Under the pieces are notes generated by a model. The model searched no databases. It worked only from the letters and a program-made list of their open reading frames with translations, and had not been told where the DNA came from. Below, piece by piece: positions 2,826-44,692 of a stretch of DNA of 61,102 nt. The stretch's first letter is position 1; the number at the start of each line of letters is the position of its first letter. This DNA is from Candidatus Yanofskybacteria bacterium RIFCSPHIGHO2_01_FULL_43_32. Its GTDB lineage: Bacteria; Patescibacteriota; Minisyncoccia; 2-02-FULL-40-12; GWA2-44-9. The position numbers and the translations under genes are program-made. The DNA lies in contig MGJF01000004.1 of assembly GCA_001794125.1 (NCBI GenBank), positions 1 through 61,102 of the forward strand, read 5' to 3'.

Positions 2826-3227
2826 ATGACGATAAACCCCATTGCACAAGCGATTGTTGATTGGACGAGGCTCAAAATAAAGCTTCATTTTTCAGACCGT
2901 GTTATCTATTTTAAGGAAAAACAAATTTGGTGGATAGCTATCGGACAGAATATTGGAGATGAACAGAATGGAAAGAATTCTAACTTTGAAAGGCCAGTTC
3001 TGGTACTAAAGAAATTTAACATGAATATGTTTTTGGGTGTCCCTATTTCTACTAAGATTAAAGACGACCAATATAAACATATCTTTACCAATAATGGCAC
3101 TCAATTCTCCGCAAATTTATCTCAAATTCGAGTTTTTAGTAGCAAAAGACTTTTACGCAAAGTTGGAGTTATGGAAAATTCTGATTTTGAACAAGTGAAA
3201 GAGGTGCTTAATAGTGGGATAAAATAA
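2826..3227 (+). CDS. PemK/MazF-family endoribonuclease toxin (orphan)
   Basis: IWWIAIGQNIGDEQNGK...RPVLVLKK...GVPIST...QIRVFSSKRL, typical PemK-like motifs; no adjacent antitoxin ORF. Confidence 0.85.
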   Translation: MTINPIAQAIVDWTRLKIKLHFSDRVIYFKEKQIWWIAIGQNIGDEQNGKNSNFERPVLVLKKFNMNMFLGVPISTKIKDDQYKHIFTNNGTQFSANLSQIRVFSSKRLLRKVGVMENSDFEQVKEVLNSGIK

Positions 3228-11100: not shown

Positions 11101-11717
11101 AGAAAGTCTTAGCCGTTGAAGTCGCCCCTTCGGCAGGCTCAGGGCAAGCGGGGGAGAAGAGAGAATACCTCGTGTCTCCTAATATTACTGTTACCGTGGC
11201 GGCCGGCGATTTAGTTACTGTCGGCCAGCAATTGAGCGAAGGCCATGTTGACCTCAAAGAATTATTTAAAACTACCGACAGTATTGATTTAGTTGCAAGA
11301 TATATCATCAAGGAAGTACAGGCAATTTATTCGCCGACCGGAGACAGTATTAACGACAAGCACGTTGAGCTGATAGTCAGACAGATGTTCTCAAGAGTGA
11401 AAGTCCTTGATTCCGGAGACACTGATCTCTTGGCTGGCGATACCGTTGAAAAGAGGACCGCCTGGATTGAGAATGAAAAAGCTAAAGACAACAAAAAGAT
11501 AGAAGCGACATTTGAACAATTATTGCTTGGTATCACCAAAGTATCTTTGACCACCGACAGTTTCCTCTCGGCCGCTTCCTTCCAGGAAACAGCCAGAGTC
11601 CTTATCGATAGCGCAATCCTCGGCAAAGAAGATTACTTAAGAGGTTTGAAAGAGAATGTTATTATTGGACGGTTGATACCGGCGGGGACGGGGTTCGGCA
11701 ACGAAATGGAGGAATAA
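8130..11717 (+). CDS. rpoC: DNA-directed RNA polymerase subunit beta'
   Basis: NADFDGDQM catalytic motif, N-terminal Zn finger, GEPGTQLTMRTFH. Confidence 0.99.
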   Translation: MDLSSIKLKIASPDDIMSWSYGEVTKPETINYRTQKPERDGLFSESIFGPTKDWECYCGKYKRIRYKGIICDRCGVEVTRSIVRRERMGHIKLAAPVAHIWFLRGVPSKVATVLGVSLPELERVIYFASYIITSVNEDLKAEAMKRIESEFKSKLKNSKNAGEEESLKELKDREKNNLKNMLKYQIISELDFRDLSSKYGEVFEASIGAEAVRKLLEELDMEEMLSELEGEAKNESNPLEIRKISRRLKYLKGMIKAGIRPEWAIITILPVIPPALRPMVPLDGGRYATSDLNDLYRRVINRNNRLKHLLELKAPEVITKNEKRMLQEAVDALIDNSMRRGQITTAASTGQKRALKSLADMLKGKQGRFRQNLLGKRVDYSGRSVIVIGPELNLAECGLPKQMALELFKPFVVGILIRKELAHNIKSAGRLIEQETADVWAALEEAMKNKLVLLNRAPTLHRLSVQAFEPILIEGKAIKIPALPTHAFNADFDGDQMAVHLPLTIEAQREAKELMLASHGVLKPATGEPVASPSHDVSFGVYYLTSMSNGARGEGKTFSSRYEALLSFENDLTDLRAKIKVPNPDHQIDDSQPKMIETTPGRMIFNKALPKGHVFVNRTLTKPDLKVIGSDIWDEFGKEATVVFLDKVKDLGFHYATISGISWGMNDLRIPVEKPGIIKEADQKIEENKALYEDGLLTEYERRSKAIEIWNTTKSKLSVLVKKQLNPDDSAFMLVDSKSRGTWGTLDQMMGMRGIFANPAGELIELPVRNSLKEGLTSLEYFISTHGARKGLVDTALKTATAGYLTRRLVDVAQDIVVTEADCKDKEGFVMHAEDGKVSGETLGRRVKGRAVLEDIIGLDGEVIVKKNKIVDKESAKKIETLGLKTIKVRSAIKCKAYTGICQLCYGYDLSKNELVDIGEAVGIVTAQAIGEPGTQLTMRTFHTGGVAGGADITMGLPRVEEIFEARPPTFKALVADVDGKVLAVEDRGKQKVLAVEVAPSAGSGQAGEKREYLVSPNITVTVAAGDLVTVGQQLSEGHVDLKELFKTTDSIDLVARYIIKEVQAIYSPTGDSINDKHVELIVRQMFSRVKVLDSGDTDLLAGDTVEKRTAWIENEKAKDNKKIEATFEQLLLGITKVSLTTDSFLSAASFQETARVLIDSAILGKEDYLRGLKENVIIGRLIPAGTGFGNEMEE
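11126..11145 (+). repeat. in-frame CCTTCG..GGCTCAGG-family palindromic element in rpoC (encodes PSAGSG)
   Basis: matches copies in ssb, groEL and at 54658. Confidence 0.7.
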
Positions 11718-11720
11718 TCC

Positions 11721-11849
11721 GAATAGCTCACACAACCTCTATACGTACGGAGGGAGACACCTTTTTAAAAATTTACTAATTTTGTAAAAAGTGTCTCCCT
11801 CCGCCGGTTGTTTACTTGATAGTTGGCAATTGGCAAGCGAGTTCAAACT
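11721..11849 (+). repeat. long-hairpin element E, copy 2
   Basis: cggagggagacac...gtgtctccctccg stem; immediately after rpoC stop. Confidence 0.85.
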
Positions 11850-11858
11850 AAATATACC

Positions 11859-11886
11859 TCAACGGCTCACACATGTGAGCCGTTGA
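11859..11886. repeat. 28-bp palindrome P28 (TCAACGGCTCA-cacatg-TGAGCCGTTGA)
   Basis: perfect 11-bp arms, 6-bp spacer. Confidence 0.9.
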
Positions 11887-11920
11887 TTTTAGGGTAAGAA
11901 AGTGGGAAGATTGGGAGATT

Positions 11921-12502
11921 ATGGGCGACATGAAGAAGTTAACTGAAGAGATTAGGGTGCATGTTTTTATTGATGCTTCAAACTTATGGCAAGCACAAAA
12001 AGCCAAAGGAAGCATGTTTGATTATGAAAAATTAAAGGCTTTTTTAAAAAATAAATTTACCGCTTCTGAGTTAAAAGTTTTCTATTACACAGCGTATCCA
12101 GCCGAAGGTACTAGGGACTATAGTCTTGATGGAAAACATAAGTTTTTTACCTATCTTAAAAAGGGACTCGGGTTTGATGTCAAAAAGAAAGAGCTAAAAA
12201 GGATAACGACACATAGTGATGCTGGTGATTCGATTCAAGAAAAAGGAAATATGGATGTTGAAATGACAATTGATGTAATACACAATGCTTCTAAATATGA
12301 CATTGCCGTCTTGTTCTCGGGTGATTCTGATTTTTTGGCATTAGTGACCTATTTGAAGAATATTGGTAAAAAGGTTTATATTTTTTCTTCAAAGAACAAC
12401 GTTTCCCAAGAATTAAGAACTGGAGGAGACGGTTATTTTGACGTGTTAAATTTGGAGGAAGATATTTGGCGCAGAGAACTCAAACATCGAGGTAGTAAGT
12501 GA
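11921..12502 (+). CDS. NYN domain (LabA/DUF88, PIN-like) ribonuclease
   Basis: VFIDASN, KGNMDVEMTID, LFSGDSDFLAL acidic motifs. Confidence 0.9.
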   Translation: MGDMKKLTEEIRVHVFIDASNLWQAQKAKGSMFDYEKLKAFLKNKFTASELKVFYYTAYPAEGTRDYSLDGKHKFFTYLKKGLGFDVKKKELKRITTHSDAGDSIQEKGNMDVEMTIDVIHNASKYDIAVLFSGDSDFLALVTYLKNIGKKVYIFSSKNNVSQELRTGGDGYFDVLNLEEDIWRRELKHRGSK

Positions 12503-12577
12503 TAAAAAAGCAACCCTCCTTGCGGAGGGTTGCCCTTAGATGTAATACCCTTTTGGTTCATGGTAGAACCAGAAGAT
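12503..12577 (-). ncRNA. candidate small RNA convergent on NYN gene
   Basis: minus-strand TTGACT(12608-12613)-N18-TATACT(12584-12589) promoter, 10-bp hairpin, then GCAACCCTCC-GCAA-GGAGGGTTGC plus T-run. Confidence 0.55.
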
Positions 12578-12627
12578 GTATAGAGTATAGCATGCCAGCC
12601 GGCCGGCAGTCAATGGTTGTCAACAGA

Positions 12628-12653
12628 TAGCGGCTCATGTAGTGAGCTGTTGA
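12628..12653. repeat. degenerate P28 copy
   Basis: tagcggctcatgtagtgagctgttga followed by ttttaggg, as in other copies. Confidence 0.65.
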
Positions 12654-12685
12654 TTTTAGGGGGAGAAAGTGGGATGATTTAAGAT

Positions 12686-13219
12686 GTGAATGAAGAAAAA
12701 ATTGAGTTACAAAAAAGAGAGTTAGCAGATATCAAGACGTATTTTCTTGACATGGCTAAGTATTCTGATAAAAGACAACATGAGGTTGACGACCACTTCA
12801 CATTTAGTCAATTGACAGTTGCCTCAATCATTTTTGCCCTGTCTCTAAATATTTTAAAAATAGTTGCGGAAAGTTTTATTTGGGTAAGAATATTTTACAT
12901 AGGCGGTCTCGTTTTGTTGTTATTATCGTTGATGTTTGGGGTTATTCATTTTAACATGAAAAATAAGTTTTGGAAGAGTAATGGTTTAAAATTTAGTGAA
13001 GTTTTTAATTTATGGAAGAGCGCGGAAAACAGGTCTTTACTAAGCAAAGACGAGGAATTTATTACCAGCATAAAGATTCAGACAAAATTAGGTGAGAATG
13101 CGATCTTGGGCAAAAAAGATAGCATATCACAAGATGGACGGGCTTCAGATTGGCAATCCATGACCTTAATTTTTGGTGCACTACTCGAAACTATTTCTTT
13201 GATTATTACTATTTTTTAG
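12686..13219 (+). CDS. hypothetical membrane protein (about 3 TM)
   Basis: GTG start; two adjacent hydrophobic helices plus a C-terminal helix; AT-rich island. Confidence 0.75.
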   Translation: MNEEKIELQKRELADIKTYFLDMAKYSDKRQHEVDDHFTFSQLTVASIIFALSLNILKIVAESFIWVRIFYIGGLVLLLLSLMFGVIHFNMKNKFWKSNGLKFSEVFNLWKSAENRSLLSKDEEFITSIKIQTKLGENAILGKKDSISQDGRASDWQSMTLIFGALLETISLIITIF

Positions 13220-13246
13220 CCTCACTCTCTTGGATTATGACAAACC

Positions 13247-13274
13247 TCAACGGCTCACACATGTGAGCCGTTGA
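13247..13274. repeat. P28 copy (spacer cacatg)
   Basis: identical to 11859-11886. Confidence 0.9.
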
Positions 13275-13331
13275 AATTTTAGGGAAAAGTTGTGCCTTGG
13301 CTAGGAGAGGCTTGGGTAGTAGAATTTAATC

Positions 13332-14345
13332 ATGGAAGATAGTTTAAACAATCATCCCACATATGTGGATCTTTTTAGTGGGGCAGGAGGGTTTAGTTTG
13401 GGATTTGATAATAATGGTTTTATAAATATTTTTTCTGTTGATATGGAGCCTAGTTTTTGTGAGACTTATAGCAAAAATTTTCCAGGGCACAGGTTAATCC
13501 AAAAAGATATAACAAACCTTACTAAGCAAGAAGTTTTAAGCCTTATTAAAGGTAAAAGAATAGATGTGGTTATTGGGGGTCCACCGTGTCAGGGTTTTAG
13601 TATGGCTGGCAATATTGGAAGAAAATTTGTAGACGATTCTAGAAATAGTTTATTAATGGAATTTGCAAGAATGGTAGAAATAATTAAGCCCAGTTATTTT
13701 ATCATGGAAAATGTTGCACGCCTATATAACCACAACAAGGGGAACACCAGAGAAGAGATAGTTAAAAAATTTATTAAATCAGGCTACAAAGTTGACTGTA
13801 GAATTTTAAATTCGGCAGATTATGGAGTTCCACAAATAAGAAAAAGAATTATTTTTGTTGGATCAAGGGTTGGAGGAAAAATATTATTTCCTGAGAGGGA
13901 GGTTGAAAGATATATAACAACGGAGGAGGCCTTAAGAGAATTTACTTCAAAAGATCTCAACAAAGATTCTAACATTTACAACCATGAGACAATGAAACAC
14001 TCAGGTCAAATGTTAAAAAAAATGAGCTATGTATCAGATGGAGGAAACAGGTTCGAGATACCTAGTCACATAAGACCAAAATCAGGCGATGTGAGAAAAT
14101 ACATAAGATATAACAGCAATAAACCATCAATTTGCGTTACTGGTGACATGAGAAAAGTTTTTCACTATTCGGAAAATAGGGCTCTAACTGTTAGGGAGTT
14201 AGCAAAACTTCAGTCATTTCCAAACGATTTTATTTTTGTAGGTTCTCGTATTTCTCAGCAGCAACAAGTTGGTAATGCCGTGCCGCCCTTGATGGCTTCA
14301 GCTATTGCTAGAGTGGTAAAAAAAATGATTAAAAATGATAAATAA
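13332..14345 (+). CDS. DNA (cytosine-5) methyltransferase
   Basis: motifs FSGAGG, GGPPCQGFS, ENV, QIRKR, GNAVPP. Confidence 0.95.
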   Translation: MEDSLNNHPTYVDLFSGAGGFSLGFDNNGFINIFSVDMEPSFCETYSKNFPGHRLIQKDITNLTKQEVLSLIKGKRIDVVIGGPPCQGFSMAGNIGRKFVDDSRNSLLMEFARMVEIIKPSYFIMENVARLYNHNKGNTREEIVKKFIKSGYKVDCRILNSADYGVPQIRKRIIFVGSRVGGKILFPEREVERYITTEEALREFTSKDLNKDSNIYNHETMKHSGQMLKKMSYVSDGGNRFEIPSHIRPKSGDVRKYIRYNSNKPSICVTGDMRKVFHYSENRALTVRELAKLQSFPNDFIFVGSRISQQQQVGNAVPPLMASAIARVVKKMIKNDK

Positions 14346-15348
14346 AGAATTACCCAAGATAAACTTCATAGGAAACAAAGAAAATATTTCCGGATGGATA
14401 TCCAGTTTTTTCCCTGCCGGTATTAAATCCGTGTTTGATGCTTTTTCTGGTGGTGGCTCAATTGGTTATCAAGCAAAAAAAATGGGATTTAGTGTTGTGA
14501 GCAACGATATATTGAGGGTCAATTACTTATTAGCGAAATCACTTATTGAAAACAATAGCGAGATTTTAAATGATTCAGACATAGAGGTTGTATTTAGAGG
14601 GAAACCTTTTCGTGGCTTTATGTTTGAAAATTACTCGAATGTATTCTTTTTTCCAGAAGAATGTATGGAGCTTGATTTATATAGAAAGAATATAGAAGAT
14701 TTATCGAATGAATTTAAAAAGGCCATTGCCATTTCCCTGATTAGGAGGGCGATGGTCAGAAAAATGCCATACTCTAGGTTTAATATAAAATGGGATAAGA
14801 TTAAACAACTAAGAGATGAAGAATATAGCTATAATAAGTATGGTAGACGAAGAGCATATCACAATATTTCTTTTAAGGATCATTTTTTAGAAAATGTTAA
14901 GGATTATAACAATGCAATATTTGATAACAATAAAAAAAATATCGCACTTAATGACGATACTTTTGACTTACTCGGAACAGTTAAGGCAGATTTAATTTAT
15001 CTTGACCCACCATATACGGGAACAATGAACAATTATTTCAGTTTTTATGGGCCACTTGATGAATACATAAGCTCAAAAAAACTAACGCCTTTTAAAAACA
15101 ATTTTATAGACAAACAAACTTCTGTGGCACTATTTGATAATTTATTTTCCAAACTATCAAGCTATAAGTATTGGTTTTTAAGTTATAACAACAGTTCATA
15201 TCCGTCCAAGGAAACCCTAATGGACTTATTAAGTAAGTATTGCAATAATGTTAAGGTTGTTGAAAGAGGACATGAATATAAAATCACAGGCAAAGATAAT
15301 AAACAAAAAAATAAGGAGTATTTATTTATAGCTACCAATATTAAATAA
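14335..15348 (+). CDS. DNA N6-adenine methyltransferase (Dam/FokI-like alpha group)
   Basis: DAFSGGGS motif I and YLDPPY motif IV. Confidence 0.93.
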   Translation: MINKELPKINFIGNKENISGWISSFFPAGIKSVFDAFSGGGSIGYQAKKMGFSVVSNDILRVNYLLAKSLIENNSEILNDSDIEVVFRGKPFRGFMFENYSNVFFFPEECMELDLYRKNIEDLSNEFKKAIAISLIRRAMVRKMPYSRFNIKWDKIKQLRDEEYSYNKYGRRRAYHNISFKDHFLENVKDYNNAIFDNNKKNIALNDDTFDLLGTVKADLIYLDPPYTGTMNNYFSFYGPLDEYISSKKLTPFKNNFIDKQTSVALFDNLFSKLSSYKYWFLSYNNSSYPSKETLMDLLSKYCNNVKVVERGHEYKITGKDNKQKNKEYLFIATNIK

Positions 15349-15357
15349 TAAAACAAT

Positions 15358-16425
15358 ATGACGAGTCAAAATTACGAAGATTATTGGAAGTTAACATTAG
15401 AGTATAGTGATATTAATAGTGACAAATTTTTAGGAACTTTGAGTATAATAGTGAATTTCATAGACAAGAATAGCTCAGAAGAATACTCAAAAGAAAAATA
15501 CGACAGACTACAACAAGAGGTTTTTGACACCTTTCCAAAAGAAGATATGGGCTCTGTTCGTAAAAGTATAAATCAGTTTATTAAACTGGGTTTCATCAAT
15601 TTTGAATTACGGTCGTATCATCCCAACACTAAAGACTTTATTAATGCAAAGACAAAAAGAAAAAGGCAGTCTATTTTTTCAAGGATAGTTTACACAAATT
15701 CAAGTTTTAGTCGTTCTGTTACCAACGATTCGAATGGTCGTGAAATAAATTTTTTGATAAAAACATTAGAAGAAAACGGTAAGTTGCATAAGAGAGACAT
15801 CATATCTCTAATGACAGTAGATGTTTCAGAAATAGCGAGCGGTTATTTAAATAGTCAAGAATTAAGCGACAGAAGGGTATACGCCGAAGAAATCGATTTT
15901 ATAGAAAGAAAATATAATCAAGTTTCTTATTTGTGGGGTGTTTTGGGTAAACTGGATGACCTGATTATAATCGATGATTATTTATATTTTCAAGAAGATG
16001 CCCAAGTAATTCTTGACTCTGAAATTAAGAAGGACAAATTGAGAGACCCATATTTACACAGAATATACAAAAATCAATTAAAAGAAGAAAGCACTGAAAT
16101 TTTAGGTGGTATCAAGTGTATGGTAGAAAAATTAGTCTACCCGACGCTTGTTGCAAGTCACATAAAACCATTTGTCAAATCCTCTGAAGAAGAATCATAC
16201 GATCCGGAAAATGGCTTGTTGTTAAGCCAAAACATGGACGGGCTGTTTGATAAGGGTTACATATCATTTAATGATGATGGGAGTATTATTTTATCAGATA
16301 AATTAGACCCCGAATTAAGAGATTATCTGAGCAAATACGTTCTCGACGGTGTTTTTGTTGGAGCCAAAAGGAAAGAGTATCTGAATTACCATAGAGAAAT
16401 TTTTGGAGAGAGATTGGGTATTTAG
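15358..16425 (+). CDS. HNH restriction endonuclease
   Basis: C-terminal LVASHIKP...ENGLLL...DGLFDKGYISF HNH_2-type domain, directly after two MTases. Confidence 0.88.
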   Translation: MTSQNYEDYWKLTLEYSDINSDKFLGTLSIIVNFIDKNSSEEYSKEKYDRLQQEVFDTFPKEDMGSVRKSINQFIKLGFINFELRSYHPNTKDFINAKTKRKRQSIFSRIVYTNSSFSRSVTNDSNGREINFLIKTLEENGKLHKRDIISLMTVDVSEIASGYLNSQELSDRRVYAEEIDFIERKYNQVSYLWGVLGKLDDLIIIDDYLYFQEDAQVILDSEIKKDKLRDPYLHRIYKNQLKEESTEILGGIKCMVEKLVYPTLVASHIKPFVKSSEEESYDPENGLLLSQNMDGLFDKGYISFNDDGSIILSDKLDPELRDYLSKYVLDGVFVGAKRKEYLNYHREIFGERLGI

Positions 16426-16451
16426 AAAAAATTTTTGGTGTGATTCAAATT

Positions 16452-16473
16452 CCGCCCACTCGGGCGGTTTTTG
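16452..16473 (+). terminator. intrinsic terminator (repeated at 18294-18315)
   Basis: ccgccc-actc-gggcgg plus T-run. Confidence 0.75.
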
Positions 16474-16556
16474 TTTCGAACCGGATTAATTTTTAGTCAA
16501 GATTGTTGGGGTAAATTTTGTATGATAAAATAAAGCAAAATTTTTAATTACCAAAC

Positions 16557-17075
16557 ATGCTTGATTTTCTTACCGATTTTCTTAAAAACATTAACGATAA
16601 CTATGCCCAGGTATTCCTACTTTTAATAGCAGTCCTCTCCACCTTTTTTGTTTATAATGAATTTGTTTTAAAAATAAGACCTTATGTAATACCAGAAATT
16701 GCCGTTGAGCTGAAGGATGGAAATTGGTATTTCAATATTGTTTTAATAAACAAAGGTGAAAAGCCGGGGATTGCAAGAATTATCAATGCTGTTCTAAAAA
16801 TAGGAGATGAAAAATATCCTACACTTTTTGAACTTAACCTTGTTCTTGCTCCGAATGAGCGTCAGAGAGTTCTTCCCATTGGACACATAAGTAGTATTGG
16901 CAGAACAAAGATACTAGGTCACGAATATGTAGATAACAATGTCCAAATATTTTTAGAAATTGAGTCTAAGGCCATTGGAGATAAAAAATTCAAATATAAA
17001 ACCAAGGAAGAATATCGTGTAGACGTAAGTGGGAGCCAACCCCGCATTACATTAATAAAAGAAGACCTGAATTAA
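16557..17075 (+). CDS. hypothetical protein with N-terminal TM anchor
   Basis: 172-aa ORF, hydrophobic N-terminus, beta-rich remainder. Confidence 0.7.
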   Translation: MLDFLTDFLKNINDNYAQVFLLLIAVLSTFFVYNEFVLKIRPYVIPEIAVELKDGNWYFNIVLINKGEKPGIARIINAVLKIGDEKYPTLFELNLVLAPNERQRVLPIGHISSIGRTKILGHEYVDNNVQIFLEIESKAIGDKKFKYKTKEEYRVDVSGSQPRITLIKEDLN

Positions 17076-17160
17076 AAATCGCTGAAATCTGGGGCGAATA
17101 AAAAATGATAGTCTGGTGCACTTTACTTTGCTTAATAATCTGCTAAACTTCAGATTTATT

Positions 17161-18096
17161 ATGGTCGACACGCCTCAACCCATACAAAAAGAGAATAATT
17201 TACATAAACTGGCAAAAGCAACAGTTGTATTTAGAAACAAGCCCACACTTCTTTTGAATCTTGACCATGTCATGCCCATGTCAGTAATGCTTGTTGCTAA
17301 AGAATTACATGGGAAAAATATTCCAGACCTGGATGTTATTTTACATACTCCGGGAGGCCACATCGAATCTGCCTATAAAATTGTAAAATTATTACGCAAA
17401 CATGCGAAGAAAATAAACGTAATTGTTCCATCATTCGCAAAAAGTGCAGGAACTTTAATTTGTCTTTCAGGGGAAACTCTCATGTTGTCTACGATATCAG
17501 AGCTCGGTCCGTTAGATGTGCAAATCGCCGAGCACCAAGAAGGCGATATAGATACCTACAAGTCAGCCCTTAATGGCTATAAAGCTCTTGAGCAAATTCA
17601 AAATCATGCAGTTGAAAATCTTGATGTTGCAACACAACTTATTTTACAACGAACCGGTAATAGGATGAGATTGCAAGATATTATAAAATTAGCCATTGAT
17701 TTTTCCGGCAATACGAGTGGTTGTCTATATAACCAGATTCATCCTAAAACTATTGCAGAATCGGCTCGCTATTTGGATATTGGCGAACAATACGGAGTGA
17801 GAATCTTAGAGCGTTATATGGGTTGGGATAAGATCAAGGCAACAAAAGTTATACACCATCTTGTCTATGATTATCCATCACATGAGTTTATAATAGATAA
17901 AGAAGAGTTGTCGAAAATGGGATTTGCTGTACAGGATATTCCGAGTGAATTGGAGATACCTCTTGAAACATCGGCGGCACTTTTACAGGGGCAAGATATA
18001 AAATTCTTTGATATAATAAACCCCGGTTCCTCAAAAGTAAAGTTAGAAAATAAAAATACTAAAAAAAATGAAAAAGATTCCAAAAAAGCAAAATAA
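17161..18096 (+). CDS. SDH-family Clp-fold (S49-like) serine protease
   Basis: LHTPGG, IVPSFAKSAGTLI, ELGPLDVQ motifs; start chosen at the ATG at 17161. Confidence 0.85.
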   Translation: MVDTPQPIQKENNLHKLAKATVVFRNKPTLLLNLDHVMPMSVMLVAKELHGKNIPDLDVILHTPGGHIESAYKIVKLLRKHAKKINVIVPSFAKSAGTLICLSGETLMLSTISELGPLDVQIAEHQEGDIDTYKSALNGYKALEQIQNHAVENLDVATQLILQRTGNRMRLQDIIKLAIDFSGNTSGCLYNQIHPKTIAESARYLDIGEQYGVRILERYMGWDKIKATKVIHHLVYDYPSHEFIIDKEELSKMGFAVQDIPSELEIPLETSAALLQGQDIKFFDIINPGSSKVKLENKNTKKNEKDSKKAK

Positions 18097-18268
18097 GAAG
18101 CCAGAGGAAGCACAACAAGGAGTGGTTATCGATGCAGATATGGCCGGATTTATAAAACGTATAATCAGCGATAGCCGCTCCTTGGTAAAAGATATAAATC
18201 GTGCCAAACATGCACTTGGGTCTACTCCTGTTTTTTCTGTCGATAAACAACGCCGCTATATATTATAA
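18068..18268 (+). CDS. small basic protein overlapping protease 3' end
   Basis: 66-aa ORF followed by a terminator. Confidence 0.5.
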   Translation: MKKIPKKQNKKPEEAQQGVVIDADMAGFIKRIISDSRSLVKDINRAKHALGSTPVFSVDKQRRYIL

Positions 18269-19520: not shown

Positions 19521-19527
19521 ACCGTCC

Positions 19528-19555
19528 TCAACGGCTCACATGTGTGAGCCGTTGA
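19528..19555. repeat. P28 copy (spacer catgtg, inverted relative to 11859 and 13247)
   Basis: tcaacggctcacatgtgtgagccgttga; right edge of the AT-rich island. Confidence 0.9.
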
Positions 19556-19583
19556 GGACTGGCCGCTTAGTTAATCATGTTTT

Positions 19584-22805: not shown

Positions 22806-23813
22806 ATGTCAGCCAAGAAACCGGCAACAACCGAAAACAAGCACGTCGATATGACAGTCAAAGAGATTCAGGAGAAGTATGGCGAAGGGTCTTTAATGCG
22901 TTTGGGTGAGGTAAAGAGGGTCAATGTGGACGTAATTCCGACAGGTTCTATTTCTTTAGACTTAGCCTTAGGAGTAGGTGGAATACCAAGAGGCAGAGTT
23001 ATAGAAATATACGGTCCTGAAAGTTCCGGTAAGACAACCCTTTGTTTGCATATTGTTGCCGAAGCCCAAAAAAGGGGCGGAGTCGCCGCATACATTGACG
23101 CTGAACACGCTCTGGATCCTGAATATGCCAAGAAGATAGGGGTTAATTTGGGAAACCTTTTGATATCCCAACCGGATACTGGCGAACAGGCGTTAGATAT
23201 AGTAGAGTCATTGGTTAAATCAGGAGGTATAGATGTTATCGTGATTGATTCAGTGGCGGCACTGACCCCGAGAGCGGAAATAGAGGGGGAGATGGACCAG
23301 CAGCATATGGGTTTGCAAGCAAGGTTGATGTCTCACGCTTTGAGAAAACTTACCGCTATTGTTGCCAAGTCCAATACCTCAATAATTTTTATTAACCAAT
23401 TAAGAATGAAGATTGGAATCATGTTTGGAAATCCCGAGACGACTCCGGGCGGAATGGCTTTGAAATTTTATTCTTCCGTCAGAATTGAAATTAGAAAAGC
23501 CGCCCAGATACAGGCTGCCGAAAAGATAGTGGGGAACAGGGTTAAGGTGAAAATAGTTAAGAACAAAATTGCCCCTCCGTTCAGAACTTGCGAGTTTGAT
23601 ATCCTGTATAACGAAGGCATCTCGCGATATTCCGATGTCGTGAATACCGGAGTTAAATTTGGTGTTCTTGCCAAAGCAGGCAGCTGGTATAATTATGGCG
23701 AGCAAAAATTAGGCCAAGGCGTAGAGGGCTCGCGGCAATTTCTCAAAGAAAATCCAAAGCTTGAAAAGGAGATAGTGGGCAAGATTAAAGAAGCAGCAAT
23801 ATTAGAAGCTTAG
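22806..23813 (+). CDS. recA: recombinase RecA
   Basis: [31 protein letters not shown]. Confidence 0.99.
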
Positions 23814-23818
23814 AGCTT

Positions 23819-23880
23819 GCCCCGCACCAAACTTATCCGCTAACCGCCATTAAGAAAGGGGGCGGGTTTGGTGCGGGGTC
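23819..23880. repeat. ~63-bp CCCCGCACCAA...TTGGTGCGGGG hairpin element, copy 1
   Basis: homologous to 27621-27685 and 38268-38330. Confidence 0.85.
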
Positions 23881-23927
23881 ACTAAAATTAAGGCCGCAGC
23901 AGTACTTGAAGCGAAGGGTTAAGCGAA

Positions 23928-24379
23928 CCCCCACCCATTTCCGACCTGTTGGATTACGGCCTCCGGCCTTCTTCGGACAAATGCTTAAATTAACTCTCAA
24001 TTTGCTTAACAAATTTTAGCATCCGTTTGCCCCGCCTAAATTTTACCTTATAAAACTTAGGCGGGTTTTCCGGCTAAAATTTGTTGACTAAGCAAATTAT
24101 CAACTAATTTAATCATTGTGTTATCCTCGAAACCAATCGGTCTGAAATGGGCAGGGGTTTCGCTATTTTTTAAAGCGAGGGACATATGCCCTCAGAGAAC
24201 GACCCGCAGATGCTTGGGCTTGGTTCTTCCAAGCGCCGAGGGAGAAGAAAGATTTGCCGCTGGAGCAAATCTATTCTGGTTCGAGGAAGGCATGTGGCCT
24301 TCGCAGTTTTTAAATCAAGCGAAATCCCTTCCCATTTGAGACCGAAGGCGCAGGCAATAGGTCGTAAATGGGTGGGTGG
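23928..24379. ncRNA. candidate large structured element with possible pseudoknot
   Basis: closing stem 23928-23950/24356-24379 plus several long internal stems; no credible ORF. Confidence 0.5.
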
Positions 24380-24400
24380 AAGCTATGTTTTAAGGCGGGG

Positions 24401-24429
24401 TTGACATTTTGGTTTTAGGAGAGTATAAT
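24401..24429 (+). promoter_or_regulatory. consensus sigma70 promoter
   Basis: TTGACA-N17-TATAAT exact. Confidence 0.85.
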
Positions 24430-24590
24430 GATAAAGTACCTGGCCAAGGCTTACCGCATAAAGGCGTGGCTGGGTTTGTAATCAACAAAGGGGTAGTTGG
24501 TGCGGCTGCTACCGCCGTTACCGCCGGGCCAATAATTAGGCGGAAAGGATAAGACCGCTCTCCTTAAGAAGCGGTCACTCTGGAGGTCCC

Positions 24591-24692
24591 ATGAAGACAG
24601 TTGTCGTCAGTGGTCAGGTTTACACCGGCAAAACTCTGGCCGAAGCCATGACCAAGGCTCGGGAAGACCAGAAGGACAGGAACACCCGGTAA
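24591..24692 (+). CDS. 33-aa small ORF MKTVVVSGQVYTGKTLAEAMTKAREDQKDRNTR
   Basis: GGAGG 4 nt before ATG; below the ORF-track cutoff. Confidence 0.45.
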   Translation: MKTVVVSGQVYTGKTLAEAMTKAREDQKDRNTR

Positions 24693-24902
24693 GGGTCAGG
24701 CCGAGTGGCCAGGCCGAGTTGTTAACTCGGTCTCTCTAAACTAACTTCTGAAAAAATTCAGAACTTAATTTAGCGAGGCCTGGGGTGTCCCTTACCTTTC
24801 CGAAAGGTGAGGGACTATGGTCGGGAAAATCTGCCGGGCGGTAATCCTGCCGCTCGGGTGGCTCCCGGTCATTCTCCTGCTCCAGCCTCGCTCCGTTTCT
24901 CG

Positions 24903-24927
24903 AGACCCCTTGACTGGGGTCTTTTTT
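24903..24927 (+). terminator. intrinsic terminator
   Basis: agacccc-ttgact-ggggtct plus T-run. Confidence 0.8.
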
Positions 24928-25017
24928 AATTAAAATGATAAAGCGAAAGCTATGTTCCCACAGGGAGAACTTGCGGAGGCATTTCGGCTTGGTTCTGCGA
25001 AATGCCGAGCATGTAGA

Positions 25018-25046
25018 TAAAAAGCGCCCGCTGGAGGCGCTTTATT
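25018..25046. terminator. bidirectional terminator downstream of rpsR
   Basis: aaaaagcgcc-cgctgga-ggcgcttt. Confidence 0.7.
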
Positions 25047-25079
25047 ATCGGTCGAGTCGTGGGGATATAGCTTGAGCGA

Positions 25080-25289
25080 TTATTTAACCGTCTGATTCCG
25101 GGTATACGGCATGATGGCCATGAACCTTGCGAGTTTGACCGCTTCGGCTATTTTGCGCTGGTGCTTGTTGCAAAGCTGATTTCTCCGGCTTGTGGCAATC
25201 TTAAACTGGGAAGTGACATACTTCCTTAAAAATTGAGTGTTCTTATAGTCCACTCTGTTTATATTGTCTTGGCAAAATTTACATTCCAT
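25080..25289 (-). CDS. rpsR: 30S ribosomal protein S18
   Basis: VDYKNTQFLRKYVT...CNKHQRKIAEAVKLARFMAIMPY. Confidence 0.95.
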   Translation of the reverse strand: MECKFCQDNINRVDYKNTQFLRKYVTSQFKIATSRRNQLCNKHQRKIAEAVKLARFMAIMPYTRNQTVK

Positions 25290-25291
25290 AT

Positions 25292-25807
25292 TTAAAACGG
25301 TAAATCTTTTTCTTTAATACTCATTTCGTCCTCGTCAACCCCAGAATGCATCGGTTCGTTCTCGTCTATGATTGGTATCTCGGCATCTTTAACAGGTGAC
25401 GGAGAAGAACTTCGTCCTGAGCCTGTCGAAGGATTTTTAATGTCAGTTACTTCGGCAGAATAATTACTCTGTCCGCCTGTTGCCTTCGGTCCCATCTGCA
25501 AACTCTCGGCGACTATCTCGGTAACATATCTTTTGACATTATCTTTTCCGGTCCAGTTTCTTGTCTGAAGACGGCCCTCTATCATGACCAAACCGCCTTT
25601 TCTCAAATACTGGCTGGCAATCTCTCCCAACCGGCTCCAGGCGATTACGGTGTGGTATTCGGTGGCATCTTTTCTGCCTCCGGAAGGATCTTTCCAGACC
25701 CTGTTTGTGGCCATTCTCAAGGTAGTAACGCTTTGACCGCTTGTGGTTGACCTCGTTTCCGGGTCTTGGGTTAATCTTCCAATGAGGTAAACTTTATTTA
25801 GATTCAT
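25292..25807 (-). CDS. ssb: single-stranded DNA-binding protein
   Basis: NKVYLIGRLTQDPE, EGRLQTRNW, C-terminal DLPF. Confidence 0.97.
   Translation of the reverse strand: MNLNKVYLIGRLTQDPETRSTTSGQSVTTLRMATNRVWKDPSGGRKDATEYHTVIAWSRLGEIASQYLRKGGLVMIEGRLQTRNWTGKDNVKRYVTEIVAESLQMGPKATGGQSNYSAEVTDIKNPSTGSGRSSSPSPVKDAEIPIIDENEPMHSGVDEDEMSIKEKDLPF
25410..25432 (-). repeat. in-frame CCTTCGACAGGCTCAGG element in ssb (encodes PSTGSG)
   Basis: same family as the rpoC, groEL and 54658 copies. Confidence 0.75.
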
Positions 25808-25821
25808 ATTGTTTTATTTAA

Positions 25822-26268
25822 TTACAACCCCTCAATGATTTCTTCAAGTTTTTTGTCCAATTCTTTCGACTCTTTTTTGGGTTCTGCCGGAGCGGAAGCC
25901 TTGGCCTGGGCTCTTTTTTCCTGTCTTTCTCTCATCTTAATCTGTTTTAACATGGACTGTTTCTTTTGTAAATCCGAAGGCAGTTTGATTATCAGATATC
26001 TCAATACTTCGGGATTTAATTTAAGCTGTTCATTTAATTCGTCTAAGGCCTGGGATTCCGACAAATTAAACTGGATATAACCAAAAAAACTGTTTCCGTG
26101 ATGTTTTATCTCGTAAGATAAGCGTATTTTTTCGGGTTCTTTAGAATAAGAAATAACACCCTTATTGGAGGTTATAATGCTTTCTATTTTTTCTTTTGCT
26201 TCCCTGACTTTGGCTTCTTCCAGATTTGGATTTAAATGAAAGGCCAGCTCGTAATTTGTCTGTTGCAC
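25822..26268 (-). CDS. rpsF: 30S ribosomal protein S6
   Basis: YELAFHLNP...LSYEIKH..FGYIQF...NPEVLRYLII; rpsF-ssb-rpsR order. Confidence 0.93.
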   Translation of the reverse strand: MQQTNYELAFHLNPNLEEAKVREAKEKIESIITSNKGVISYSKEPEKIRLSYEIKHHGNSFFGYIQFNLSESQALDELNEQLKLNPEVLRYLIIKLPSDLQKKQSMLKQIKMRERQEKRAQAKASAPAEPKKESKELDKKLEEIIEGL

Positions 26269-26360: not shown

Positions 26361-26418
26361 TTGGGCGAAAAACGTGTTTATTAATGTGGCCTTATATTAG
26401 CAATTTGGGGTTCAAATG

Positions 26419-26446
26419 TCAACGGCTCACATATGTGAGCCGTTGA
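26419..26446. repeat. P28 copy (spacer catatg); left arm overlaps the rpsF -35 box
   Basis: minus strand reads TTGACA-N17-TAATAT toward rpsF. Confidence 0.85.
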
Positions 26447-26455
26447 TTTGTTGCA

Positions 26456-26588
26456 GAATAGTTCACACAACCTCCATGCATACGGAGGGAGACGTCTTTT
26501 TAAAAATTTACTAATTTTGTAAAAAGTGTCTCCCTCCGCTGGTTGCTTTGGTTGTTAAGTGATGATTGGCACTAGAAGGTCAAACTCT
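26456..26588 (+). repeat. element E, copy 3
   Basis: near-identical to copy 2. Confidence 0.85.
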
Positions 26589-26801
26589 CTCTGATATTTT
26601 CAAGTCAAAATTATTACCCCTATGTCCAGTGTAGGGGTAGATTTATTATTTTGGAATACATATCCAATCAACTTCAGCTCTTGATTCGCCTCGTCAAAGT
26701 GATTCGAAATGATGAGGCTGCGCTTGATACTCCAATGCTTGCTTTATTTAAAACATATTGTATAATAAAGTAGCTTAGTTCTTTTAAGGAATGGGTGACG
26801 G

Positions 26802-27446: not shown

Positions 27447-27594
27447 TACTTTATTTCAGAAGAGTTTGAATCTTAATTGCCAAATATCAAATATTTACTA
27501 AGCAACCGGCGGAGGGCGTGTGCTTTTTTAAAATTAGTAATATTTTAAAAAAGTGCACCCCGCAGTCATGTATAGAGGTTGTGTGAGCGATTCT
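27447..27594 (-). repeat. element E, copy 4 (inverted)
   Basis: reverse complement nearly identical to copy 1. Confidence 0.85.
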
Positions 27595-27620
27595 TTATTT
27601 TCCGATAAGAATCTCTACCA

Positions 27621-27685
27621 CCCCGGCACCAAGCTAATCCGCTGACCGCCATTAAGAAAAGGGGCGGGCTTGGTGCGGGGCAGGC
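27621..27685. repeat. 63-bp hairpin element, copy 2
   Basis: ccccggcaccaagc...gcttggtgcgggg. Confidence 0.85.
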
Positions 27686-36731: not shown

Positions 36732-37868
36732 TTATCCCATCTTATATTTTCCGGTCAGTTTAGCAACCTTTTCTAATTGTTCTGTAAGTTTAAAGTTTTT
36801 CTTAATTTTTTTAATCCCGCGCTTTTCAAGCCGCTGGATTACGGCTTTCAGTATCCATGGCCAGACAACCGTTGCGTCTTGAAGGACTTCTGAAAAATTA
36901 CCGTCAAGTTTCATTTTTCCCCATGAAACGCCTTCTGAATAAGTACAGCCGGACAAACCTCCCCAGTTGACCGGTTCCGGACATATTCTTAATCCATAAG
37001 AAAACCGGATACCTTTAATGTGCTTCGGAGCTTTATTTTTGGGCATTCTGCCTTGTATTAACTCAAGAAGAGGTGCGACTTGCTGGGCCCAATTTCTGGG
37101 TACGCCGCCGCCTATCGTAAAGAGGGCAATTTTTTTCTGTTGGTTGATGAGCTCGGTATAGTGCTGGAGATCCAGCAGGGGATTAAATTGAAACGGTTTT
37201 TCTCCCTCGATTGCTTGGCGAAGAAGGTAAATGTAAACATCAAGGCCGAGTTCGGAGTCCGTATCCGCCGGTATGTAAACCGGAACATTCATTAGGCGGG
37301 CGCTTTTTAATATGCCTCTTTCTTTCGTGTTCTCTGTAAGCCACTGGCCGAGTTCTCGAGTTATTGTTCTTGACGTCAGGATTTGGTTCTGCGGTAATTT
37401 TTTCAAAATTTGGTGAACGATTCCTTCGGTTTCATCCAGATTTATTTCCGGTTCGATCACATCATATATGCGGTTATATCCTTTCTCATACAAATCGGAA
37501 TCGCTCATGGCGGGGTTATATTTGAAATGTTTCCGGCCGCTTGATTCAACGAATCCGTGCGTCATCAGGGCGCCGGTAGAAACAATGGCATGGACAAATC
37601 CGCGTTCAACCATCTCGCAAACCAAAAGCCCCATCTTTGCCGGAGTCATTGCGCCGGATAAGGTCATGACCACAAACACATTTTTGTCCGTTATCATTTT
37701 GAACAGCGTATCGGCGGCTTCGCCGACAGTACGCCCTCCAAATGCCGTTAAAGATTGGGACCTTAACATATCGTCAAAATCGTTTATTTTTGAAAGGTCC
37801 AGCGGTTCCAGAGGGGTAAGATTGTCATCAAATCCGGTATGATATTGATGTGCGTTTCGGTGCTTCAT
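36732..37868 (-). CDS. deoxyhypusine synthase-like protein
   Basis: TLSGAMTP, IGGGVPRNW, GGLSGCTYSEGVSWGK. Confidence 0.88.
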   Translation of the reverse strand: MKHRNAHQYHTGFDDNLTPLEPLDLSKINDFDDMLRSQSLTAFGGRTVGEAADTLFKMITDKNVFVVMTLSGAMTPAKMGLLVCEMVERGFVHAIVSTGALMTHGFVESSGRKHFKYNPAMSDSDLYEKGYNRIYDVIEPEINLDETEGIVHQILKKLPQNQILTSRTITRELGQWLTENTKERGILKSARLMNVPVYIPADTDSELGLDVYIYLLRQAIEGEKPFQFNPLLDLQHYTELINQQKKIALFTIGGGVPRNWAQQVAPLLELIQGRMPKNKAPKHIKGIRFSYGLRICPEPVNWGGLSGCTYSEGVSWGKMKLDGNFSEVLQDATVVWPWILKAVIQRLEKRGIKKIKKNFKLTEQLEKVAKLTGKYKMG

Positions 37869-37879
37869 TGTTTGTTTTA

Positions 37880-38917
37880 TTATTCTAATCCCATCTTTTC
37901 TTTTACTTCTTTTAGTGTAGAACCGGCTAATGCTTTAGCTTTTTCTTCGGATTTTATTAAAATAGACATAACGTAGTCAGGATTTTTCTTGAGTTCGTTA
38001 TATTTTTCCTGAAACGGTTTCAAAAAGCCCACAACAACTTCGGCGAGGTCGTTCTTGAAGTCCGCATATGATTTGCCTTCGTATTCGGCTTCAATGTTTT
38101 TTATCTCTTTTCCCGAGAGCATGTGGAAGATGGTGATAAGATTTGAGATTGCCGGCTTTTCTTCCTCGTTGTAGTAAACTTCTTTTCCGGAGTCGGTGAC
38201 GGCTTTTTTAATTTTTAACCTAATCTCATTTGGAGTATCAACTAGAAAAATACAACTATCGTCTCCGGCCTGCCCCGCACCAAGCCCGTCCCCTTTGCTG
38301 GCGGTCAGCGGATCAGCTTGGTGCGGGGTCTTGGACATTTTTTTGCCCGGATCCTGGAGGGACATTATTCTGGCACCTTCAGTCAGTTTTGCTTTGACCG
38401 GTTCAAATGTCTGGCCGAACATGGAATTAAATTTTTTGGCAATCTCGTTGGCTAAGTCGATGTGGGGCATCTGATCTTCTCCGACAGGAACAAGATTGGA
38501 TTTATAAATTAAAATATCGGCGGCCATTAAAACGGGATAATCTAAAAGCCCCATGTGGTTGTACTTGGGGGATTTGGCGAGCTGTTCTTTATGGGTAGGC
38601 AGGCGATCCAGCCAGCTCACCGGTGTAATCGTATTAAATATCCAAGCGAGTTCCGTATGCTGGGAGACTTTTGACTGGCGGATAAGGAGTGCTTTGTCGG
38701 GGTCAACTCCGGCGGCTAAATAATCCAAAACTACGTCCATGACTTGCCCGCGGTATTTCTTTGGGTCAAAAGGGGTAGTAATGCCGTGGTAGTCCACAAC
38801 GGCAAAAATTGCCTGGTCGGTTTTGTCCTGAAGTTCAATCCAGTTTTTGATGGCTCCGAGGTAGTTGCCGAGATGCAATTTTCCCGACGGTCTTATGCCA
38901 GAAAACACTTTGGTCAT
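37880..38917 (-). CDS. trpS: tryptophan--tRNA ligase with in-frame palindromic insertion
   Basis: SGIRPSGKLHLGNY, VPVGEDQ, KKMSK; start chosen at MTKVF. Confidence 0.96.
   Translation of the reverse strand: MTKVFSGIRPSGKLHLGNYLGAIKNWIELQDKTDQAIFAVVDYHGITTPFDPKKYRGQVMDVVLDYLAAGVDPDKALLIRQSKVSQHTELAWIFNTITPVSWLDRLPTHKEQLAKSPKYNHMGLLDYPVLMAADILIYKSNLVPVGEDQMPHIDLANEIAKKFNSMFGQTFEPVKAKLTEGARIMSLQDPGKKMSKTPHQADPLTASKGDGLGAGQAGDDSCIFLVDTPNEIRLKIKKAVTDSGKEVYYNEEEKPAISNLITIFHMLSGKEIKNIEAEYEGKSYADFKNDLAEVVVGFLKPFQEKYNELKKNPDYVMSILIKSEEKAKALAGSTLKEVKEKMGLE
38268..38330 (-). repeat. 63-bp hairpin element, copy 3, in frame in trpS
   Basis: encodes TPHQADPLTASKGDGLGAGQA directly after KKMSK. Confidence 0.85.
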
Positions 38918-44089: not shown

Positions 44090-44221
44090 CAACCTCCATG
44101 CATGCGGAGGGAGACGCCTTTTTAAAAATTGATTAATTTTGTAAAAAGTGTCTCCCTCCGCTGGTTGTTTGGTTAAATAGATGACAACTGGCAATAGAGA
44201 TTCAAACTCTCTTGGAATAAG
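44090..44221 (+). repeat. element E, copy 5 (5' end replaced by CCTGCC palindrome)
   Basis: gcggagggagac...gtctccctccgc stem. Confidence 0.8.
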
Positions 44222-44304
44222 GTGTCATAGAATTCTTCTTTTGACCATAAAACACAACCGTGCTAATATAGACGATAATCTCTGTTCTTTTCCAAGGAGA
44301 TTTC

Positions 44305-44562: not shown

Positions 44563-44692
44563 GTTTGACCTTTTCTTATCAATTGTCATTTAGCTACCAA
44601 AACAACCGGCGAAGGGTGTGCCCTTTTATAAAATTGCAAGATTTTAGAAAAGGGGCACCCCGCAGCATGCATAGAGGTTGTGTGAACCTATC
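44563..44692 (-). repeat. element E, copy 6 (inverted), overlapping the uvrC stop
   Basis: same conserved flanks as the other copies. Confidence 0.8.

Follow-up and report, generated by a model that had tools for sequence, protein, structure and literature searches.

The ~450-nt fold that follows recA in this window (the whole 61,102-nt stretch of DNA that was analysed, hereafter 61 kb) is a one-off mosaic of intergenic inverted repeats, built at the DNA level and arranged in a way that is unique to this locus. Enclosed in it is a core of ~140 nt (24170-24311, + strand), a three-way junction of the helices P1, P2 and P3, which belongs to a family under selection for a single-stranded branched fold and which is apparently undescribed. 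On balance, we favour reading the region as a repeat mosaic around a conserved element that is structured as a single strand, most likely an RNA acting in cis.

The element sits downstream of ftsK in the recA-rpsR spacer, which is 1266 nt long and non-coding (Table 1). Judged from sequence, the host is a CPR bacterium of the Rifle aquifer with Candidatus Yanofskybacteria as its closest RecA relatives (81–83% identity to the nearest RecA in GTDB genomes). The locus is 100% identical in 8 assemblies, including MGKK01000003.1 (GCA_001794695.1), and an identical RecA is found on at least 24 Rifle aquifer contigs; as the spacer is invariant among them, these contigs hold no variation that could be used for comparison. 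The Yanofskybacteria relatives keep the order ftsK-recA-...-rpsR-ssb-rpsF, with a 91–97-aa gene between recA and rpsR, and in 80 recA loci of GTDB genomes, those of the nearest Yanofskybacteria among them, we found no similarity to the window spacer, no m motif (see below) and no covariance model match. Thus, the content of the window spacer is lineage-specific. Contigs from four independent assemblies (L005–L008) stop within the spacer, at window positions 23974, 24450, 24536 and 25055, as is expected where repeats confuse assemblers. Another contig, L004, is identical to the window through 25138 and then diverges sharply within rpsR (from 25139), next to the second core copy, which suggests strain-level recombination or an assembly junction.

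Table 1 Features of the recA-rpsR spacer and dispersed repeats elsewhere in the 61-kb window
Feature	Position	Strand	Remarks
recA	22806-23813	+	Gene left of the spacer
recA-terminator hairpin (likely), R3 family, 60 nt	23820-23878	+	13-bp perfect arms; directly after the recA stop codon
m1, left terminal m motif	23923-23951		CCCACCCATTTCCGACCTGTTG; forms the closing stem with m4
Module A, nested palindromic repeat	23952-24122		Arms ~23976-24030 and 24066-24122; apex 24031-24065
m2, inverted m motif	24124-24159		Pairs with m1 (around A) or m3 (around the core); repeat search
Core copy 1, three-way junction	24170-24311	+	Alignments, RNAalifold; covariance model R1, 143.9 bits
P1 of core copy 1	24179-24194/24285-24300	+
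P1b of core copy 1	24197-24200/24279-24282	+	GAAC/GUUC
P2a of core copy 1	24203-24205/24240-24242	+	CCC/GGG
P2 of core copy 1	24209-24215/24231-24237	+	Loop GGGCUUGGUUCUUCC
P3 of core copy 1	24246-24258/24262-24277	+	Loop CGCUGGA
Right arm, inverted L089-type left flank	24301-24383		m3 24326-24343; m4 24360-24376
Consensus sigma-70 promoter (predicted)	24401-24429	+	TTGACA-17-TATAAT, 12/12 match; between the core copies
Core copy 2, diverged subfamily	24938-25081	+	Abuts the stop codon of convergent rpsR
rpsR-ssb-rpsF	25080-26268	-	Right of the spacer, convergent with recA
R1 repeat family copies	2622-2772, 11717-11850, 26455-26597, 27448-27594, 44090-44224, 44563-44698
CAACGGCTCACAnnTGTGAGCCGTTGA palindrome copies	11856-11894, 12642-12679, 13240-13284, 19524-19559, 26413-26451

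The pairings of the ~450-nt region, which the initial annotation had read as a large structured RNA, a ribozyme or a decayed mobile element, are real and far beyond chance. Its closing stem 23928-23950/24356-24379 (21/24 paired), the hairpin 23985-24112 (47/64 paired, with perfect sub-stems of 12–13 bp) and the stems 24138-24164/24318-24344 (24/27) and 24170-24190/24289-24313 (18/25) were all recovered, and an inverted-repeat search returned the same arms. RNAfold gave −206.3 kcal/mol for the + strand of 23920-24390 (471 nt; z = −14.75, an energy that none of 100 dinucleotide shuffles reached) and −200 kcal/mol for the − strand (z = −11.0). The longest exact stem measures 13 bp, and 200 shuffles gave no stem above 11 bp. 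Two additional pairings proposed for the region exist and are not conserved. The helix 24124-24135/24277-24287, which crosses the others, pairs at 11 of 12 positions with one bulge; it is found in the window and in the related locus L106 only, and is absent from L105, L089, L107 and L108. Similarly, ACGACC (24199) can pair with GGTCGT (24360) over 6/6 positions, and the former is lacking in the subfamily-2 copies described below.

The long stems are inverted repeats at the DNA level, since the modules that make them are independently repeated, pair almost purely by Watson-Crick rules and have their own depths in community data. In the minimum free energy (MFE) structure only 6 of the 174 pairs are G-U, and the mismatches have no strand bias. 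The m motif (CCCATTTnnGACC / CCCnnCCCATTTnnGACC, 20–27 nt) is present at 23934 (+), 24139 (−), 24331 (+) and 24360 (−); its fourfold alternation, together with the nested palindromic module A and the inverted left flank, gives rise to the long near-perfect stems. No fifth exact copy of the motif is present in the 61-kb window, where two further matches carry one mismatch each, and its 22-mer matches solely its own inverted partner. Module A forms a hairpin of 138 nt by one measure, with an inner hairpin of 170 nt by another; its arms are conserved, and its apex, a swappable GC hairpin followed by TTTT, differs among the window, L105 and L106. The right arm, which generates both a long hairpin (hairpin B) and the closing stem, is seen at the window locus only: window 24286-24383 is the reverse complement of positions 6043-6140 of L089, a contig with an element copy, at 98% identity.

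Depths in public metagenomes are modular as well. In groundwater DNA runs, element-related sequence is 10–100 times deeper than the unique DNA of the host, and separate depths, at 10–80 times the unique flanks, were obtained for the recA-terminator hairpin, the arms of A, the apex of A, the P3 part of the core and the m3/m4 pair. The A arms are 20–60 times deeper than the unique flanks, the recA-terminator hairpin reaches a community depth of 800–2000 vs a baseline of ~25–90 (20–80 times the unique flanks), and the centre of subfamily 2, represented by core copy 2, reaches ~2700 in run X1 vs ~25 for unique host DNA. Contigs break exactly at the borders between modules (24031/24065 and 24237/24282), beyond which they run on into unrelated DNA, and 1.4-kb contigs in runs X1 and X2 match 23952-24121 in other contexts. 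Relatives of the element occur in geographically separate aquifers, in addition to aquatic and soil runs; in the RNA-labelled aquatic and soil runs they appear as contigs of depth 2–24 only, for which DNA carry-over is possible.

The hairpin at 23820-23878 is context, outside the element. It has three copies in the window (23820-23878, 27620-27685 and 38268-38329), with 83–90% identity, and the window holds at least four palindromic repeat families besides the modules of the element. The R1 repeat family (~100–150 nt, intergenic) has six copies in the 61 kb, with 73–91% identity and a central palindrome ACGGAGGGAGAC..TTTTTAAAAATT..GTCTCCCTCCG whose sequence is unrelated to the studied element. 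At least five window copies were also found of the perfect palindrome CAACGGCTCACAnnTGTGAGCCGTTGA (28–40 nt), which recurs at 100% identity at ~2541-2570 of L093 and may serve as a common terminator or as a binding site for a protein.

Matches to the spurious ORFs in the protein database led us to DNA copies of the element elsewhere. In Rifle contigs L089, L090, L093 and L096, a copy lies between a 215-aa gene and an S1-domain gene. The left part of this L089-type copy is the reverse complement of the right arm of the window (98%), its centre corresponds to window 24137-24300 (89%), and it ends just past window ~24300, without right arm, closing stem or hairpin B; it is also devoid of module A. 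L106 and L107 are orthologues of the S1-domain-gene locus. Module A is present in L106, while the L107 contig starts inside the core, so that its left portion with the A region falls outside the contig. As A is present in L106 and missing from the orthologous L089, it is a presence/absence polymorphism between two m motifs. L104 and L105, from the Hainich aquifer, represent a related species (rpsR-ssb ~85% identical) in which the element directly follows rpsR, at the opposite end of the spacer and in the opposite orientation compared to the window, and in which a solo A+m2 copy occupies the position of the window element. Between this solo copy and the promoter (L105 2700-2760, reverse strand) the sequence reads ..TTTCGCTTTTAGATATGTGGCTGGGAAGCG.., which looks like the joined halves of P1 without a core and could be an excision footprint or the state before insertion. 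In L108 the central ~140 nt stand alone, wedged between a stop codon and mreB, with an extra GC hairpin inserted into the P2 loop. L109 has two tandem subfamily-2 units (521-807). The same AT-rich stretch of ~60 nt (..TTATTTGATGAATTTAGATAATCTTTTAAGCG..) lies in front of both units; its GATAAT box, 7 nt ahead of the conserved AAGCG, is the best hint in any copy that the element has a promoter of its own. Finally, the covariance model detected a further core copy, similar to window copy 2, at 2626-2766 of L093, and the window and L093 both have subfamily 1 followed by subfamily 2 in direct orientation. The copies thus come from Rifle, Hainich and further assemblies and are located in the recA-rpsR spacer (two), at the S1-domain-gene locus (two), upstream of mreB and in L109.

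In none of L089/L093, L104/L105, L106, L107 and L108 does the right arm follow the core; the closing stem and hairpin B are missing from all other copies, the inner hairpin of 170 nt is missing from several as well, and compensatory support for the 450-nt architecture was not found. The closing stem, hairpin B and the crossing helix are therefore not a conserved unit, and the single ~450-nt structured RNA of the initial annotation falls with them. It is very improbable that 23928-24379 as a whole forms a single large pseudoknotted RNA or ribozyme: its folding energy is extreme and the crossing 11-bp complementarity recurs in L106, but the architecture is conserved in no other copy, the near-perfect Watson-Crick stems come from independently repeated modules, both strands fold almost equally and Rfam offers no match. 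Nested MITE-like inverted repeats, the explanation that the annotation itself had set against a structured RNA, largely account for the long stems; they do not account for the core, which covaries. The idea of a structured RNA thus survives as a structured element with covariation support, much smaller than proposed.

Nor was a ribozyme or any other Rfam family matched in covariance-model searches. With Rfam 15, the whole window gave one tRNA only at the gathering threshold, and at E ≤ 10 the segments 23700-24900 and 24880-25120 and the loci L106–L109 gave weak miRNA/sRNA noise with no family common to different copies. Rfam 15 includes hammerhead, twister, twister-sister, pistol, hatchet, HDV-like, HEARO, IS605-orfB, ROOL, GOLLD, OLE, 6S and 5S families. 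BLAST against phages and plasmids returned no match, four patterns searched in IMG/VR gave nothing or chance matches that the covariance model rejected, and full-text searches of the literature turned up no account of such elements in CPR bacteria.

The structure of the core was obtained from a MAFFT alignment of six distinct copies followed by RNAalifold, which gave P1/P1b, P2a/P2 and P3. Three stretches are 100% identical in the six copies, GAGAACGACCCGCAG, GCUUGGUUCU and CGAGGGAGAAGAAAGAUUUGCCGC-GGAG-CAAAUCUAUUCUGGUUCGA, while the stems vary; both loops of the core, GGCUUGGUUCU and CGCUGGAG, and the junction strands are invariant. The covariance model R1, built from these six copies, matched core copy 2 (24938-25081, +) over its full length with 76.5 bits (E = 2e-16), and the improved model R2 with 118.6 bits; with filters off, R2 found just two copies in the 61-kb window. 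The two subfamilies differ in the sequence of all three stems, which are still paired, and their loops are identical. P1 reads AAGCUAUGUUCCCAC/GUGGGGAUAUAGCUU in one subfamily vs AGGCCACAUGCCUUC/GAAGGCAUGUGGCCU in the other, P2 GCAUUUCG/CGAAAUGC vs GCGCUUGG/CCAAGCGC, and P3 AAAGCGCC/GGCGCUUU vs AGAUUUGC/GCAAAUCU.

Across eight copies, 94.6% of the pair cells are standard, vs 32–44% when the partners are slid by 1–3 columns; in 30 of 46 pairs both partners have changed, and the observed values were not reached in any of 500 column shuffles. A structure-blind MAFFT alignment yielded the same three helices, with compensatory changes in 19/35 pairs. There are 9 distinct full copies that can be aligned, and as most of the double changes reflect the split between the two subfamilies, these counts represent few independent events. 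Loose ends in the read data contain further stem variants with the same loops, such as GGCCTCC-CGCTGGAAG-GAGGCC. Complementarity for a kissing interaction between loops L2 and L3 was not detected, and a 5-bp pairing between L2 and J1 (GUUCU/AGAAC) is possible, with both sides invariant and covariation hence uninformative. In a generic test for conserved structure, compensatory helices were found for the 140-nt core only. Since the stems change and yet stay paired around two invariant loops and invariant junction strands, the core family is under selection for its fold as a single strand. The insert in L108, the tandem copies in L109 and the variants in the read data fit a long-lived, diversified and structure-constrained family.

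These results also bear on the proposal that nothing here is functional and that the region consists of decaying nested MITEs whose stems are recent inverted duplications. The genome is indeed repeat-rich, the depth profile is modular, and the right arm, seen in the window only, matches the inverted flank of another locus at 98% identity. However, decay would erode the stems, whereas the two subfamilies differ wholly in P1, P2 and P3 and keep them paired around invariant loops, and members of the family occur in separate aquifers and in aquatic and soil runs; we consider this explanation improbable. Of the decayed mobile element put forward in the initial annotation, one part survives: the DNA is repeated and probably mobile.

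The folded strand, which had been left undetermined, now appears to be the + strand, on modest evidence: the pair cells of the core include 18 of the G-U type vs 6 of the A-C type, and the MFE of the + strand is below that of the − strand in 9/9 copies. This bias is silent on whether the molecule is RNA or single-stranded DNA (ssDNA), since G-T is the most tolerated mismatch in ssDNA too. Metatranscriptome runs from Rifle contained nothing from the host, ribosomal-protein genes included. Upstream of the core copies no consistent promoter was found; −10-like boxes precede some of them (TTGACT-18-AATGAT at window copy 2, TTGATT-17-TATTAT at L089), and a U-run follows P1 in some copies only. A co-oriented gene lies upstream at 5/7 loci and one locus has none on either side. 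The orientation relative to the neighbours is mixed, with copy 1 of L093 antisense to both flanking genes.

Several known roles were considered and rejected. A riboswitch or leader does not agree with the downstream genes, which are incoherent, or with the several copies that face no gene; such incoherent gene associations argue against a riboswitch. A mimic of the S6:S18 leader, suggested by the rpsR neighbourhood, is at odds with an element that lies at the operon's 3′ end, has antisense orientation in the window and has further copies beside unrelated genes. Regarding coding capacity, the initial annotation saw no credible ORF, and we agree: the 72- and 73-aa ORFs have no Pfam match and their relatives are translated copies of the element only. 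Coding was rejected for a 46-aa ORF as well; like the other two, it was of use only for finding further DNA copies. Although the ORFs were called in several assemblies, the chance that the region encodes small proteins is close to negligible, as their boundaries differ among copies, they overlap in different frames and the differences between copies are non-synonymous, falling on codon positions 1 and 2.

The predicted promoter 24401-24429, which lies between the core copies, would drive a unit with a small ORF and is context, outside the element. Downstream of it come a leader of ~150 nt, a Shine-Dalgarno sequence GGAGG and a 33-aa ORF (24591-24692; MKTVVVSGQVYTGKTLAEAMTKAREDQKDRNTR), and the Hainich relative (L105 2385-2700, reverse strand) has TTGACA-17-TATGAT and a similarly patterned 31-aa ORF (MVQKIIIGGKTYFSQDGVVLTKKEAKEAGLK). 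From these sequence features, the 33-aa ORF appears to be a genuine gene for a small protein, with strong expression. The ORF of 37–40 aa at 24807/24817-24929, frame-shifted between the window and the Hainich species, is probably non-coding.

Mobility is supported by the different positions and orientations in orthologous spacers, the presence or absence of module A, the tandem duplication, the placement against stop codons and the high copy number; that the core copies spread as mobile DNA is inferred from their differing positions only. A Pfam search that covered ~45 window ORFs and the genes next to other copies detected no transposase, RAYT, TnpB, reverse transcriptase or integrase. As for a MITE, multiple copies are present at unrelated loci. 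The window copy has terminal inverted repeats of 29 nt (23923-23951/24355-24383), and the right-hand repeat is lacking in L089, L105, L106, L107 and L108. No direct repeat flanks the window element (..GGGTTAA / .. / TATGTTTT..), and a possible ~11-nt duplication TCGGnC..AAATG around module A is indistinguishable from the A palindrome itself. An autonomous IS with the same ends was found neither in the window nor near the other copies, and a metagenome motif scan gave the same locus only: the m-hairpin pattern returned 13 loci, of which 2 were real, both of them the L089 locus, and 11 were unrelated palindromes. As for REP/BIME, units alternate (m = + − + −) with repeated linkers, although the unit itself is not palindromic, and no RAYT (Y1 transposase) gene was found in the 61 kb and a few further loci of the genome. 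As for a PATE/omega-RNA carrier derived from IS200/IS605, the copies are full-length homologues rather than distinct ends, and the window and the neighbours of other copies contain no TnpA/TnpB and no Rfam omega-RNA match. A left-end/right-end pair of a cargo transposon was considered and not adopted, given the same full-length homology; in L093 the cargo would be the S1-domain gene, and L109 carries tandem subfamily-2 units.

The most serious alternative to an RNA is that the core acts at the DNA level, as an ssDNA junction read by an enzyme of the HUH/Y1 type (IS200/IS605-PATE-like or REP/RAYT-like) or by another recombinase; the element would then be non-autonomous and moved in trans, and any RNA would be incidental. 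This would agree with multiple copies at differing positions and orientations in orthologous spacers, with copies that abut stop codons and the tandem duplication of L109, with the strand-specific structure (18 G-T-type vs 6 A-C-type cells), with the location of both window copies on the G-rich strand, the would-be lagging-strand template, with the nesting of repeats in hairpin loops and with the lack of a consistent promoter. On the other hand, none of the enzymes listed above is encoded by the ~45 window ORFs or beside the other copies, neither a target-site duplication nor a conserved cleavage tetranucleotide was seen, and the two spacer copies are homologous over their full length instead of being distinct left and right ends. 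The core, with three helices branching from a junction and two long invariant loops, differs from the simple subterminal hairpins that known HUH transposases recognise. We regard an ssDNA element as rather unlikely, though worth keeping in view.

By analogy, the organisation of the locus most resembles BIME/REP, pneumococcal BOX and ERIC, all of them modular mosaics between genes that form hairpins and have no transposase next to them. Like the BIME/REP of enterobacteria, it shows a short motif alternating in orientation with conserved linker modules in between, strictly intergenic placement, often after stop codons, copies that would form hairpins in transcripts and mosaic variation from locus to locus. 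Unlike them, the m motif is not itself palindromic and has no GTAG-type head, no RAYT gene was seen, and the window has a 140-nt branched covarying element that BIMEs lack; there is no sequence similarity. BOX of Streptococcus pneumoniae, ERIC and IRU are likewise intergenic repeats of 100–300 nt, modular (like boxA-B-C) or bearing insertions, with stable folds in either orientation and no known transposase, but the whole unit of BOX and ERIC is a simple imperfect palindrome rather than a three-way junction with invariant loops, and they come from another phylum without homology. With MITEs (Correia of Neisseria, RUP, Nezha) the element shares small size, non-coding sequence, multiple copies, repeats nested within repeats and, in the window copy, 29-nt terminal inverted repeats; these repeats occur in the window copy only, however, with no target-site duplication and no parent IS found, and covarying stems with conserved loops are unexpected for ends bound by a transposase. 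Three-way-junction RNAs, such as 'tuning fork' aptamers of the purine-riboswitch kind and 5S rRNA, have a similar variable P1, two hairpins with conserved loops, conserved junction strands and ~120–140 nt. They differ in that no shared-family Rfam match was obtained at E < 10 and in that the core is multi-copy and embedded in repeats.

Returning to an RNA acting in cis, the reading that we favour, the core molecule would be an RNA transcribed through read-through of the gene upstream or else from weak −10-like boxes nearby, and its invariant loops and junction may offer a binding surface to a partner, either protein or nucleic acid. Copies would be spread and reshuffled by recombination or transposition among palindromic modules, as in BIME, BOX, ERIC and MITE. 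By the same analogy, the effect in the cell would most likely be in cis, in the formation or protection of 3′ ends or in the insulation of convergent or adjacent units; a trans-acting small RNA would be the alternative. More tentatively, the core might represent an undescribed class of small structured RNA of Patescibacteria/CPR, multi-copy and abundant in groundwater, with the loops GGCUUGGUUCU and CGCUGGAG and the junction as its binding or catalytic core; it would then be, for example, a component of a trans-acting RNP or an RNA that promotes its own spread.

Three further observations concern genes elsewhere in the window. A low-GC island at ~11900-18100 (31–35% vs ~44%) encodes an NYN-domain protein, a C5 cytosine DNA methyltransferase, a D12-class N6-adenine methyltransferase, an HNH endonuclease and a ClpP/SDH-like protease, and is probably a restriction-modification or defence islet. 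An ORF at 2826-3227 encodes a PemK/MazF-like toxin of 133 aa, and 36732-37868 encodes a homologue of deoxyhypusine synthase (Pfam DS, E = 2e-72) in this CPR bacterium.

CPR/Patescibacteria have tiny, streamlined genomes and, to our knowledge, almost no described biology of non-coding RNAs or repeats. At least one CPR lineage carries several interspersed palindromic repeat families, and also a ~140-nt element that is kept for its branched single-strand fold, in aquifers on two continents and, taken together, in very high abundance. In such a genome, stacked inverted repeats can produce very negative folding energies, and the functional unit can be far smaller than the fold and be revealed only by comparison between copies. 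If the element is an RNA, it would be a candidate for a new class of non-coding RNA in organisms that are not culturable on their own; if it is mobilised as ssDNA, it would point to an unrecognised mobilisation system in CPR genomes.
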